Of a stretch of 64,000 nt of DNA, positions 6,137 through 10,421 are shown in pieces. The notes below the pieces were generated by a model. That model worked only from the letters and a program-made list of their open reading frames with translations. It was not told the DNA's origin and did not search any database. How positions within the stretch are numbered: the stretch's first letter is position 1; each line of letters starts with the position of its first letter. Origin of the DNA: Candidatus Aenigmatarchaeota archaeon (GTDB taxonomy: Archaea; Aenigmatarchaeota; Aenigmatarchaeia; CG10238-14; SCSR01); the NCBI GenBank assembly GCA_016187415.1, contig JACPJT010000007.1, forward strand, positions 1,289 through 65,288. The letters are read 5' to 3'. The position numbers were made by a program, and so were the translations under genes.

Positions 6137-6261
6137 TGCAGGGGGAGAGATTTGAACTCTCGAAGGGACTAACCCAGCGGATTTCTTATATCATCTTTTG
6201 TTCAAAACTTAAGCTGCATAACTTAAGTCCGCCGCAATTGGCCAGACTATGCGACCCCTGC
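6137..6261 (-). tRNA. tRNA-Leu (anticodon UAA), type II with long variable arm and ~39-nt intron
   Basis: Minus-strand acceptor GCAGGGG/CCCCTGC plus discriminator A, T-arm GAGAG-TTCAAAT-CTCTC, anticodon stem GCGGA/TCCGC, loop C-U-UAA-G then intron, and a 15-nt variable arm. Confidence 0.65.
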
Positions 6262-6288: not shown

Positions 6289-6849
6289 TTAACCTTTCGT
6301 AACAAAACTCAAAACAGGCAGCAATATATAAAAGACCGCCATGAATGTCCTGATCAGAATCTTCCTTGCATTGACTGGCATCCTGCTCGGCTTGTACAAT
6401 ATCCACGGCACATTCAGCCTGTCAGACATGAACAGCGCGTAAAGAAGAAGGAGCGTTATTGAATACATGACTTCATTTAGCATAGGAACGATGGAAAACA
6501 GGAGCCACACGCCGACTACCGACATTAGCGTATGATGGATCCACACCAAGAATAAGTTCCAGAACTTGAACAGGAATTTCTTATTTTCAACCGAATACGC
6601 CAGATACAAGACCATCAGACCCAGACTGGAAACAATAAACAGGCCTCCTGCGACAAGCTTCAGAATATTCGAACCGAAACCGAGAATGGAAAATAAGGAA
6701 GCCAGCCCGCTTAACAGCACGGCGTGCCCGCTAAACGCATACGCCCACCATACTTTCGATTTGACATATTTCTTATACGGAACGAATGCGAAAAGCAGAG
6801 AAATTAATGAAAATATTAGGACTGCCACGTCCACATTGCCAAGTATCAT
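6289..6849 (-). CDS. hypothetical polytopic membrane protein (186 aa, ~6 TM)
   Basis: Hydrophobic helices throughout; no motif. Confidence 0.5.
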   Translation of the reverse strand: MILGNVDVAVLIFSLISLLFAFVPYKKYVKSKVWWAYAFSGHAVLLSGLASLFSILGFGSNILKLVAGGLFIVSSLGLMVLYLAYSVENKKFLFKFWNLFLVWIHHTLMSVVGVWLLFSIVPMLNEVMYSITLLLLYALFMSDRLNVPWILYKPSRMPVNARKILIRTFMAVFYILLPVLSFVTKG

Positions 6850-6867: not shown

Positions 6868-7562
6868 CTATTTTAATTTCTTTAAAGCCCTGTCGAATTC
6901 CTTTACTTTTTCCTCTAGAATGGTTGCTGAATCCAGAATCACGTCTTCGGTGGCCAGACCTGAAGCCGTTTCGACATTGAAAATGTAACTGTCGTCTATG
7001 GCCTTGAACTCCGAACTTTCTTCATTTAGAAATTTGCACATCAAACAATCCATGGGCTGCGACTTGACGCTCTTTACATCCCTGACATTGTAAAAATGGT
7101 TGCCGCATAATTTTGCTTCGCTGATCCTTGATTTGTGCTCAAACTGGTTTATGTAGCCCACTACAGCGCCCTGCCATTTTGAATGTTCCTTGCCCAACCC
7201 CAACACGGCTATGGCCTCGAATTCCAATTCCTGAGCATCTCGCCGGAATAAACCATAGCTGGTCCCTTCTTTTTCAAAATTAATTTGACTTGGCACAGGC
7301 TGCATCCCTTGCCTTCGCACTTGCAGTCTTTCGTCATGTTGTAAGCCCTTTTGTCAAACTTCAGCGGCACATGACCCATCCTGTTGGCAAGTATCTCATC
7401 GTTCAAAACAGAACCGTTCTTTACATAATCAACCCACTCTATCGCCATTGTTGGTATCTCTCCCATCATTATCCTTCTGAGCTCGTTGGCGAACTGGGGC
7501 TTTATGCCCTCGACTAGAAATTTAACGCTGGAATCCGTTTTGCTGAGTATCTGAATTTTCAT
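6868..7562 (-). CDS. rpoD: DNA-directed RNA polymerase subunit D (Rpo3/Rpb3 homolog) interrupted by a frameshift between N- and C-terminal halves
   Basis: ORF 7209..7562 is the Rpb3 N-terminal dimerisation domain plus 4-Cys cluster (DCKCEGKGCSLCQ). ORF 6868..7320 in another frame carries the conserved C-terminal GLGKEHSKW motif. The two frames overlap over 7209-7320 with an A5 run at 7270-7274. Confidence 0.8.
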
Positions 7563-7682
7563 TTAACCACAATTCACAGTAGACAATTTTGTTTTTGAAC
7601 CAATTTAAACTTTTGCTATTTTACGGCTTTGCACCTTAAATGGATTCTGCGCCCTAAAATCGTTTTCTGGGATTGACATCTA

Positions 7683-8417
7683 TCATCTTAAATTCACAAG
7701 CTGGCTAGCGAACGGCCAAGCAAGTATTTCACGGGATCTGACTACAAAATCAACAAGCATGTGCTGACTTAATTGCCTGTACAAATTTCTAACCTGTTTT
7801 TCTTTCAGACCTTCGTTCTTCTCCATTCTTTCGACTTCGCTCCTCACCCATTTTGGATCAGGATTTTCTGGTCTGGTGAATCTGTATATCGTGTTCACTG
7901 CTTTGGCATCGGAATTTATCATGCCGTTTGCTTGGACATACAATTGCGTCTGCCACAATGTTTCTCCACGTCTGGCGACTTCAGGTTGCACAAAATAATC
8001 GATTCCATGTATTTTTAGGCGACTTTTGCCTTCAACGACGCTACCCAGCAACGAACCCCAATAAGGGTTCGAATCCCAGGGCCCGGCGACCGAAAGCATG
8101 ACCATCATCCTATAGGCCTTGAAGTTCCACCTGAGAGCCCTCAAACCTTCCGCGTCTTCTGGATTAGTATTTCTATTAACGTATGTATTGGGATCCACGT
8201 TCAATAATTGCCGCATCTGTGGAGTTGTAGTGAATCCCCTTGCCACCCAGTCTATGTCTCTCAACGGACCTTTTACTCCCTTCAAATCAATTTGTGGATT
8301 GTCTGCTGTTCCTGCAACCCTGTAATCGACAATATATAATGGGTCGGGCGATGGGTTGTCTAATATGGGAAGCTTCAGTCCTGTTATTCTTGGCGAGTAT
8401 ACTTGCAACGATGCCAT
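7683..8417 (-). CDS. hypothetical protein (244 aa), GC-elevated, inserted inside the conserved r-protein/rpoD operon
   Basis: ORF with no recognisable motif. Composition differs from neighbours. Confidence 0.45.
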   Translation of the reverse strand: MASLQVYSPRITGLKLPILDNPSPDPLYIVDYRVAGTADNPQIDLKGVKGPLRDIDWVARGFTTTPQMRQLLNVDPNTYVNRNTNPEDAEGLRALRWNFKAYRMMVMLSVAGPWDSNPYWGSLLGSVVEGKSRLKIHGIDYFVQPEVARRGETLWQTQLYVQANGMINSDAKAVNTIYRFTRPENPDPKWVRSEVERMEKNEGLKEKQVRNLYRQLSQHMLVDFVVRSREILAWPFASQLVNLR

Positions 8418-8515
8418 AATTAATTAGTAAATAGTAAAGGATTTAAGTTTTGATGACTTTGCAAAGTTCATCCAATACTTGCAGATAAAAGTTATTTTAG
8501 GTGCAAGGCTCTGTT

Positions 8516-8725
8516 TTACTTGAGCAACCTGAGGAAACCGACCACATCTTTCGTTTTACCTATGTTTTTAATTTGGATGAGATAGGATGAAAGGATTATC
8601 AAAGATAATAGTGCCGTAGCCAACGAAAACGCTCTGATCGAGCTGTTTCCGGTAAGTTCGTATGCTACCGCTGAAACGAAACTTATCAATAACCCCATCT
8701 TACCAATATTCTTGTACATTTTCAC
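8516..8725 (-). CDS. hypothetical small membrane protein (69 aa, 2 TM)
   Basis: Two hydrophobic helices. Confidence 0.35.
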   Translation of the reverse strand: MKMYKNIGKMGLLISFVSAVAYELTGNSSIRAFSLATALLSLIILSSYLIQIKNIGKTKDVVGFLRLLK

Positions 8726-8845: not shown

Positions 8846-9265
8846 TTATACACGCCTTCCCAATCTTCCGCCTTTCTTTCTCAACTCGCCGTGGGTTGTA
8901 GGAGTGCAGTCTTCGATTGTACCTATTCTCAAGCCTGCACGGGCCAAACTTCTGATTGCAGGTTGTGCACCCATGCCAGGCGACTTGCTGTATTGGGATC
9001 CCCGAGCCCTTACCCTGATATGTATGCCTGTTACGCCCTTTGCCACAGCCGTTTCCGCGGCTTTTCTTGCCGCCAACATAGCTGGAAACGGCATCCCCTG
9101 TTCCCTGTCCTTGTCGGTCATCATTCCACCGCTGCATCTGGCGAATGTCTCGCTTCCAGTCATATCTGTAATATGGATTATTGTGTTGTTGGCAGTACTA
9201 TAGATGTGAGCCACTCCCCACACTTCTTCCTTCCTAGTTTGCTGTTGTTGGTTCTGTACTGACAT
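8846..9265 (-). CDS. rps11: ribosomal protein S11
   Basis: 139 aa, S11 pattern [19 protein letters not shown]...[28 protein letters not shown]. Confidence 0.9.
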
Positions 9266-9749
9266 TTACATCACTTGCGTTGTTTTTCTTTACCGGGGTT
9301 AACTTTACAACTATCTTGTCCTCTTCGTCAACGGGGACCATATAACTAGGGATTTTTACCGACCTGTTGCCTATTATAACATGCCCGTGAGCGATGAATT
9401 GCCTTGACTGGTGTGGCGTATTGACAAAGCCTTTCTTTAGCAGCACGGTCTGCAATCTTCTATCAAGGAAATTTTCTATCGAAAGCCCTAAAATCGTATC
9501 TACAGTCGCGTCCTTTGTGATTAACCCCAATTTCATTAACCTGTCTTTCAGCACTTTTTCTTTTGCGGCATCGTATTTTGCGATAAGTTCCCTTGCCAAT
9601 CTTCTGTATTTTCTAAGCATTGCCTGCATCTTCCAGATTTCCCTTTTGGACTTTAACCCAAAGTTCTTTACGATAGTCTTTTCGTATTCCAGCCTTTGTT
9701 TGTCCCATGGCCGCGATGGCGTTTGATATCGTTTTCTTTGTCTTTTCAT
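9234..9749 (-). CDS. rps4: ribosomal protein S4
   Basis: 171 aa, S4 N-terminal domain plus S4 RNA-binding fold ([44 protein letters not shown]). Overlaps the rps11 start by 32 nt. Confidence 0.9.
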
Positions 9750-9755
9750 AAATCA

Positions 9756-10421
9756 TCACTTCTTTGCAGGCTTGGCTGCGGCTGGAGCTGCTGTGGTTTT
9801 GTCTGCTTCTGGTTTTGCTATTGTTGGAGATGCTGCTCCCGCTGCGGCTGGAGCTGCACCCGGCTTTTGCAAAACAGCCTTCTTTATCACGCCGACTGTT
9901 CCATCGCCATGTCTGAAAGAGCTTCTTGTTCTCTGCCCTCTTACCGGCTGCCCCAGCATGTGTCTCCATCCACGGTAGGTTTTAAGATCAATGTATCTCA
10001 TAATGTCAAATTTTTTTGCAGTATCCAAATCCGAGCTTGTTAAATGCATATCTGCGCCTGTCGCTGGATCTTTTCTTCGATTTAATATAAATGCTGGCAA
10101 GTTGAATTTTGCCGGGTTCTTAACAGCGCCTTCCAAGTTAGAGATTCCCTCTTCGTTCAACGAACCTAATTTTACATTGGGGTTTATGTTTGCGACACGG
10201 CAGATTGCAAAACTGGTCACGACGCCTATGCCTTTGATTTTTCTCAATGCTCGTACGACTGGTTTTTCGCCATCCAAATCCGTACCGGCAACACGAATAA
10301 TAAGCCTTGGTATGTCGCGCCTTATTTCCGGCTTTTTCTTTTCTTCTTTTTTAGGCTCTTCCTTTTCCTTTCCTTTTCCCTTTGGTTTCTCTTCTTCCTT
10401 GACTCTTTTATTCGAACCCAT
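9756..10421 (-). CDS. rps13: ribosomal protein S13 with unusual N-terminal KE-rich (~35 aa) and C-terminal Ala/Pro-rich (~45 aa) extensions
   Basis: Core IRVAGTDLDGEKPVVRALRKIKGIG...RYIDLKTYRGWRHMLGQPVRGQRT is S13. The flanks are low complexity. Confidence 0.9.
   Translation of the reverse strand: MGSNKRVKEEEKPKGKGKEKEEPKKEEKKKPEIRRDIPRLIIRVAGTDLDGEKPVVRALRKIKGIGVVTSFAICRVANINPNVKLGSLNEEGISNLEGAVKNPAKFNLPAFILNRRKDPATGADMHLTSSDLDTAKKFDIMRYIDLKTYRGWRHMLGQPVRGQRTRSSFRHGDGTVGVIKKAVLQKPGAAPAAAGAASPTIAKPEADKTTAAPAAAKPAKK

Follow-up and report, generated by a model that had tools for sequence, protein, structure and literature searches.

The 64-kb stretch of DNA analysed here (the window) belongs to a Candidatus Aenigmarchaeota metagenome-assembled genome (MAG) with locus tags HYW23_, and it carries on its minus strand, in a ribosomal protein operon, an open reading frame (ORF) for a 244-aa protein (HYW23_03395, here P0001; 7683-8417). 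We consider it likely that this gene is an orphan, i.e. a fixed, circularly permuted paralogue of a C-type lectin (CLec)-type variable protein of a diversity-generating retroelement (DGR), which now exists as a stand-alone gene. In the scheme that we propose, the reverse transcriptase (RT) of the parental element would copy the RNA of a template repeat (TR) with misincorporation opposite adenines, and the resulting cDNA would replace the ~100-nt variable region (VR) of the target gene, which would form the binding surface of the protein. Throughout the text, L-numbers denote the loci that were compared and P-numbers denote proteins.

Relatives of the 244-aa protein are DGR variable proteins

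The 244-aa protein has no match in Pfam, and 27 members of its family gave only sub-threshold noise in this library; the C-terminal tail of one family member showed weak matches to RHH_1/RHH_3 (E ~0.01). A sequence profile search of the PDB with the family returned only a chance match to oncomodulin (E 0.07). The initial annotation of this DNA, made from the sequence alone, had described the protein as lacking any recognisable motif. This holds for the Pfam and PDB sequence libraries; the comparative analysis, however, identifies the protein as a paralogue of DGR variable proteins. Nine relatives were found among 5.8 billion proteins, and an exhaustive search of a 1.84-billion library with a hidden Markov model (HMM) gave 59 representatives. 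The family search with alignment A1 yielded none in the GTDB representative genomes, none in 2.9 million viral contigs, and three metagenome loci.

Downstream of the genes of two relatives, P0007 (L004; E 1e-26) and P0009 (L005; E 3e-15), a part of the respective gene recurs as an intergenic repeat, which corresponds to a TR and precedes a reverse transcriptase gene of the RVT_1 family. When intervening sequences present only in the TR were allowed, TR and VR differed at 17 of 25 adenines and at none of the 73 other positions in L004, and at 17/25 adenines and 0/82 other positions in L005. We also noticed that seven variants of P0007 differ solely in the VR. Adenine-only differences between TR and VR, together with an adjoining RT gene, constitute the signature of a DGR. 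The family of the 244-aa protein is thus a family of DGR variable proteins, and it belongs to an Aenigmarchaeota DGR lineage.

The stretch that is hypervariable among the homologues corresponds to residues 94-126 of the window protein (ALRWNFKAYRMMVMLSVAGPWDSNPYWGSLLGS; 8040-8138, minus strand), and it is framed by two conserved motifs, EGLRAL.W.F and GSLLG. It was delimited in a codon alignment of seven VRs, from the window and from L001, L003, L004, L005, L006, and L009, and its end, CTGGGTAGC, resembles an initiation of mutagenic homology (IMH) sequence. The window gene bears the codon signature of a DGR target: positions one and two of the codons are variable, the third is constant, and the flanks are identical at the DNA level. 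Its variable codons follow the pattern xxC, with the C in the third position kept, which matches the expectation for AAC-type template codons, and the VR flanks GAAGGTTTGAGGGCTCTC and GGTTCGTTGCTGGGTAGCGTC are DNA-identical to those of L001, although the two proteins are only 45% identical. The window protein also keeps all invariant and nearly invariant residues of the family.

Directly upstream of the gene we found a promoter/leader block of ~31 nt (ACTTAAATCCTTTACTATTTACTAATTAATT; 8418-8448, minus strand), which is conserved upstream of all five genes aligned that share the domain order of the window gene (A-B, as described below), namely those of the window, L001, L003, L009, and L100; the homology ends ~40 nt upstream. 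The block, a putative promoter of the 244-aa gene, includes a TATA-like TTAAAT ~30 nt before the ATG.

Several contigs in the data set break in this region. L001, L002, and L003 end 130-254 nt upstream of the family gene, and L091, L092, L100, and L101 end in or near the TR. Such breaks are consistent with a failure of assembly at the TR/VR repeat or with heterogeneity of the population.

A DGR elsewhere in the genome

With the RT of L004 as a query we found an RT in the MAG of the window itself (P0121, HYW23_02415). It adjoins P0003 (HYW23_02420), a 280-aa paralogue of the A-B type that shares 46% identity with the window protein (E 2e-52). In the run-level contigs, the RT and the TR are present on L091 and the target gene on L100, and both contigs overlap. 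The TR of L091 was compared with the VR of P0185, a population variant encoded on L100, after removal of two intervening sequences; 15-16 changes were observed, all of them at adenines, with 0/~70 changes at other positions. P0003 and P0185 differ in 10 residues, all located within residues 104-128. The adenine-only changes between TR and VR, as well as the confinement of the differences between P0003 and P0185 to the VR, show from sequence comparison that the DGR HYW23_02415/HYW23_02420 is active.

Fold and circular permutation of the family

Using HMMs of the two protein halves, we found the order B-A, with the VR near the C-terminus, in 44 members of the family, and the order A-B, with the VR in the middle of the protein, in ~14 members, including the window protein and P0003. 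P0007, a member with the order B-A, was modelled with AlphaFold2 (AF2) from 44 homologues, and the model had a predicted local distance difference test score (pLDDT) of 93.5 and a predicted template modelling score of 0.84. A Foldseek search with this family model ranked the DGR variable protein TaqVP first. The fold predicted for the family on the basis of this model is a C-type lectin, like that of known DGR variable proteins, and a CLec fold of the window protein would follow from its homology to the modelled, permuted relative.

As indicated by the alignment of the halves, the window protein is a circular permutant of the commoner layout, with the VR-bearing half placed first and the VR located mid-chain. 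Only a few residues link the former termini in the A-B proteins (GSLLGSVVEG-KSRLKI). Such a link is plausible, given that the N and C termini lie side by side in CLec domains. DGR variable proteins with a permuted chain were not described in the literature that our search covered, with the main survey of DGRs in the candidate phyla radiation (CPR) and DPANN being outside its reach.

The window gene as a probable orphan paralogue

Within the 64 kb the window gene has no cognate TR and no RT in cis, and its VR shows no hypervariation at the consensus level. Searches of the 64-kb window by tblastn with two RTs of the family gave no RT (best E 0.45), and blastn with a word size of 7 gave no TR-like copy. 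Four independent run-level assemblies, SRR12113383, SRR12113384, SRR12113385, and SRR12113424, encode the window protein without any difference, and its cluster at 90% identity has a single member; SRR12113383 and SRR12113384 also carry the variant paralogue P0185. In comparison to the only known TR of the genome, the window VR shows mismatches at 23 of 70 non-adenine positions, or at 14 if gaps are free. The mismatches to this TR are enriched at adenines (19/29, 66%, versus 23/70, 33%).

Loss of the TR and RT is found in another member of the family. L010, which encodes the closest homologue of the C-terminal half of the window protein, is devoid of both RT and TR but still keeps a pre-TR leader homologous to that of L100, showing that DGR targets can outlive their TR-RT. 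In L005 (4976-5611), the RT matches just the C-terminal ~205 residues of its relatives, and the N-terminal ~140 residues with their motifs are missing. This locus looks like a recently disabled DGR, whose TR/VR differences are still purely adenine-specific.

If the 244-aa gene is an orphan paralogue, the copy would have come as a segment of ~900 nt with its own TATA-type promoter, placed between the rpoD promoter and the neighbouring gene orf69. It may stem from a duplication of only the target gene, or from the insertion of a whole target-TR-RT cassette that later lost its TR and RT. The gene would be expressed from a promoter of its own, by read-through from the ribosomal-protein operon, or by both routes, and its product would now most likely be a binding protein of single, hard-wired specificity. 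We infer that this protein is functional, that it is cytoplasmic (no signal peptide or membrane helix was recognised by reading), and that its diversification has ended.

Some observations weigh against this explanation. The invariance of the gene was judged on consensus assemblies, where low-frequency variants of the VR are invisible. The search for a TR and RT covered the 64-kb window and one other contig region of the MAG, and a second matching TR or RT may be present in the genome. The enrichment of mismatches at adenines would fit past diversification, but it would equally fit a diverged cognate TR. Finally, the AF2 model of the window protein itself, obtained from an alignment of five sequences, had a pLDDT of 35.

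The window gene could be an active target in trans, with its VR still rewritten from a second TR, or by the known RT with another TR located elsewhere. DGRs with multiple targets, some of them distant, are documented in Wu et al. (2018, PMC5758913), and the window gene, a paralogue away from the RT and TR in one genome, resembles the remote or orphan targets and the degenerate cassettes described there. The window VR retains the IMH-like end and the scaffold codons of the family, and both the adenine enrichment and the small part of the genome that was searched speak in the same direction. However, bona fide remote targets match their TR except at adenines, whereas the window copy has 14-23 non-adenine differences from the only TR found in the genome. 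Moreover, there is no TR-like copy in the 64 kb, the window sequence is identical in the four run assemblies while the consensus VR of the paralogue differs between assemblies, and there is just one HYW23 RT among the 120 best of about 8000 RT relatives (E<=1e-20). We regard continued diversification in trans as rather unlikely.

We likewise consider it improbable that the gene is a non-functional remnant, left over from a degraded DGR cassette and now decaying. Such decay would agree with the missing TR and RT, with changes of the window VR at positions that are invariant in the closest A-B relatives, and with the occurrence of degraded cassettes in the family, such as the truncated RT of L005 and an interrupted gene in L009. 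Against it, the ORF of 244 codons is intact, every invariant or nearly invariant residue of the family is kept, the conserved promoter/leader block is undamaged, and the sequence is fixed in four assemblies. A functional, fixed orphan paralogue remains the explanation that we prefer.

Insertion into the operon

To place the gene in its genomic context, we compared the rps11 neighbourhoods of 80 Aenigmatarchaeota genomes, and the window proteins were mapped onto each of them. In most of these genomes rps11 directly adjoins rpoD. A relative of the 244-aa protein was present in the rps11 neighbourhood of none of the 80 genomes, including five with an rps11 that is 85-90% identical to that of the window. 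The 244-aa gene is therefore a genome-specific insertion into the operon.

The second ORF of the rps11-rpoD gap is orf69 (8516-8725, minus strand), which encodes a small two-helix membrane protein of 69 aa, or of 67 aa if read from the ATG at 8719. It has no Pfam match. Its homologues were found between rps11 and rpoD in seven genomes, i.e. in the five closest ones (L011-L015), where it is 55-61% identical, and in L017 and L018, which are more distant. The motifs AYELTG and FLRLLK are conserved in the alignment, which also shows two hydrophobic stretches. The retention of orf69 at this position in seven relatives indicates that it is a conserved small membrane protein of an Aenigmatarchaeota subclade, located outside the insertion. 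The initial annotation had regarded both ORFs as foreign; this stands for the 244-aa gene, absent in 80/80 relatives, but not for orf69.

The borders of the insert were estimated by comparison with L013 and L015. In these two genomes ~10 nt separate the stop codon of orf69 from the conserved promoter block of rpoD (CTTTAAATTGATTGAAAA; in the window at ~7563-7613, minus strand), whereas in the window ~900 nt lie between them. The inserted segment thus extends on the minus strand from the orf69 stop codon to the promoter block (~7614-8515). A different insert of 250-280 nt is present at the same spot in L011, L012, and L014. Target-site duplications, which had been proposed as a check of the insertion, were not found at the borders of the insert, and neither were direct repeats or a transposase. 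We found only one imperfect inverted repeat of 16 nt (pair I2, 14/16 complementary; left arm 8494-8509, right arm 7626-7641, no strand assigned), and we attach little weight to it, since such repeats are common in these AT-rich loci. Terminal inverted repeats were also considered as a family-wide signature of mobility and rejected, as there were none at L001, L003, L004, L005, L093, and L095.

It is highly improbable, and largely refuted, that the 244-aa protein is a lineage-specific accessory protein of the ribosome or RNA polymerase, or a structural protein of a virus or mobile element (capsid, encapsulin): its gene does lie inside the rps13-rps4-rps11-rpoD operon and family members occur recurrently beside ribosomal-protein genes, but it is absent at this position in the 80 relatives, the predicted family fold is CLec and not HK97, there is no relative in the 2.9 million viral contigs, family members are flanked by an RT and TR and not by virion or ribosome genes, and the hypervariation of the paralogue is incompatible with a conserved ribosomal role. 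The comparison with HK97 folds suggested in the initial annotation thus brought no support. The same annotation had named a conserved accessory protein at this position in relatives as the finding that would speak against foreign origin; because it is missing from all 80 relatives, the 244-aa gene does not fit this description, whereas orf69 does so within its subclade.

The rps11-rpoD junction appears to be a hot spot of insertion in Aenigmatarchaeota. In L017 (6409-7862), L057 (6361-7725), and L088 (6343-8142) it is occupied by a gene on the opposite strand, which encodes 314-421 aa with helix-turn-helix (HTH) repeats and, as judged by reading, a PD-(D/E)XK-like C-terminal motif. Remnants of an opposite-strand HTH-repeat gene are present in L063 (6358-7250). 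In L011 (6749-7012), L012 (6787-7039), and L014 (6746-7022) we noticed a Cys-rich (zinc-ribbon-like) mini-ORF of ~28-30 codons followed by a T-rich, terminator-like stretch.

Interrupted template repeats and location in operons

In all six DGRs of the RT clade that were examined (L004, L005, L091/L100, L093, L094, and L095), among them three with unrelated target families, the TR aligned to the VR only after two to three intervening sequences, each 14-39 nt long, had been removed. The interrupted TRs are located at 4870-5014 in L004, 4776-4924 in L005, 102-236 in L091 (from the MAG of the window), 5810-5966 in L093, 915-1114 in L094, and 5776-5973 in L095. Once the intervening sequences were removed, non-adenine changes between TR and VR amounted to 0/73 in L004, 0/82 in L005, and 0/~70 in L091/L100, and to 1/78, 1/86, and 0/85 in the set of L093, L094, and L095. 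Homology was observed between the intervening sequences of L094 and L095, whose ends are conserved and in whose hairpins compensatory changes maintain the pairing. Bulge-helix-bulge introns were tried as an identity of these sequences and rejected, because no consistent 3-4-3 motif was found at 16 junction sets.

Since the intervening sequences are absent from the VR, they would have to be spliced from the TR RNA, or skipped by the RT through template jumping, before the cDNA replaces the VR. According to Wu et al. (2018, PMC5758913), differences in length between TR and VR occur in 7% of DGRs and are mostly small indels next to AAC. Regular, structured interruptions of the TR were not described in the literature that our search covered, with the main CPR/DPANN survey of DGRs being outside its reach.

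Cassettes or targets of this lineage are lodged in operons at rps4/rps11 (L005, 2302-6039), at S5/L30 (L093, 2923-8618), just upstream of S5 (L094, 1-3525), in the gap between L37e and LSm (L095, 3944-8931), at L34e-L14e-like/Cbf5 (L006, 472-3498), in the pyruvate:ferredoxin oxidoreductase (POR) operon (L004, 763-6925), and, in the window, between orf69 and rpoD (7614-8515). About 6 of 12 independent loci adjoin ribosomal-protein genes, which is far above chance for a genome of ~1 Mb. Wu et al. (2018, PMC5758913) list an odd DGR target, 'ribosomal protein S3', which may point to the same tendency.

We propose only tentatively, and with less than even confidence, that the window gene branched off, with its specificity hard-wired, from a DGR lineage that works unlike all those described, one that would be distinguished by discontinuous TRs, by lodging in ribosomal-protein operons, and by two permuted forms of the CLec fold.

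Other kinds of selfish elements were noticed in these operons. The POR alpha subunit (L004, 1650-3578), encoded beside the DGR, carries an intein, with matches to Hint, Intein_splicing, and LAGLIDADG, and a free-standing LAGLIDADG gene (L093, 10106-11176) is present within the spc ribosomal operon. Thus, in L004 and L093 several kinds of selfish elements share these conserved operons.

Relation to known systems

Among the known DGR variable proteins, AvpA (PDB 5IOO) of a Nanoarchaeota DGR provides a close comparison in kind, being likewise a small target from DPANN archaea whose VR is part of a CLec fold. A further likeness is the IMH/IMH* pair, which is of the TGGGT/TGAAT type that Paul et al. 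(2015, PMC4372165) described in archaeal DGRs. Nevertheless, AvpA shares only 12% sequence identity with the window protein, with no match at the sequence level; its VR is C-terminal and not mid-chain as in the permuted window protein, and the window copy, unlike AvpA, has no cognate TR or RT. TaqVP (5VF4), TvpA (2Y3C), and the Mtd-type proteins are of bacterial or phage origin and have signatures of the FGE-sulfatase/DUF1566 type, which are not found in the 244-aa family. Their systems also have contiguous TRs and an accessory gene, Avd, whereas no Avd was recognised in the lineage of the window gene.

Wu et al. (2018) defined unclassified CPR/DPANN classes of VR (UVR1-6) and 45 ungrouped VRs, which, like the 244-aa family, represent DPANN targets with no domain recognisable by sequence. 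The likeness is one of description, and for the 244-aa family a fold could be assigned through modelling. This family carries no annotation so far; both its circular permutation and the position of its VR in the middle of the protein vary the known DGR theme.

Through homology, an ORFan in one of the most conserved operons of archaea gains an identity and a predicted fold: it would be a DGR-derived insertion and not a new ribosomal or polymerase factor. In this family the CLec fold appears to tolerate circular permutation, so the VR need not be C-terminal, and pipelines that assume C-terminal VRs, or TRs colinear with the VR, could overlook such systems. A very small genome that holds both an active target and an orphan paralogue of fixed sequence would provide a natural case of diversified specificity turned hard-wired. 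The interrupted TRs, if confirmed and new, would add a step of processing or template jumping to mutagenic retrohoming.

Other features of the window

The gene order given in the initial annotation agrees with the ORF calls and Pfam matches. On the minus strand, rps13 (9756-10421) and rps4 (9234-9749) were identified as ORF calls and rps11 (8846-9265) by its match to Ribosomal_S11 (E 2.8e-34); they are followed by the 69-aa ORF, the 244-aa ORF, and rpoD (6868-7562, minus strand), which encodes Rpo3. The truncation of the operon after rpoD was also borne out. An ORF for a hydrophobic protein of 186 aa (6289-6849, minus strand) and tRNA-Leu(UAA) (6137-6261, minus strand) follow, and Pfam searches found no L18e, L13, or S9 within 7 kb downstream of rpoD; the genes further downstream encode PIG-L, FKBP, FtsZ, Spt5, and L11. 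The annotation had described the GC content of the 244-aa ORF as noticeably higher. A rise is present but weak (0.48 over 7900-8350 versus ~0.40 in the flanks), and rps11 is still higher (0.50-0.51).

We also noticed that rpoD is split in the window, which had escaped the initial annotation. It is read in two overlapping frames (7209-7562 and 6868-7320), and the two fragments were matched by RNA_pol_L and RNA_pol_A_bac of Pfam. The alignment with L011-L015 shows a gap of 64 columns, as 64 nt are missing from the window between 7240 and 7239. The 64 nt are present in L096 and L097, run-level assemblies made independently from the same population, which otherwise match the window at 100% identity and have rpoD as an uninterrupted ORF of 252 aa. 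On account of these two assemblies, a programmed frameshift, a split gene, or a pseudogene was ruled out, and the split is an artefact of the MAG assembly (a 64-nt gap) or a minor deletion allele.

tRNA-Leu(UAA) contains an intron of 39 nt after position 37, and because of this intron it was missed both by ARAGORN with default settings and by Rfam at the gathering threshold, which gave there only a weak match to 'Plastid-psbl-rps4' on the opposite strand. It was detected by ARAGORN with introns allowed and also on the spliced sequence. ARAGORN also proposed a tRNA-Cys of 96 nt between the two ORFs of the rps11-rpoD gap (8426-8521, plus strand). This candidate is AT-rich and has no support from Rfam even at E<=5, and therefore it is probably spurious.

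The ORF of L11 (2238-2540, minus strand) has only 100 aa and matches the RNA-binding C-terminal domain alone, which may indicate a problem of assembly or annotation. The product of rps13, at 221 aa, is unusually long, with a Lys/Glu-rich N-terminal extension and an Ala/Pro/Lys-rich C-terminal one.

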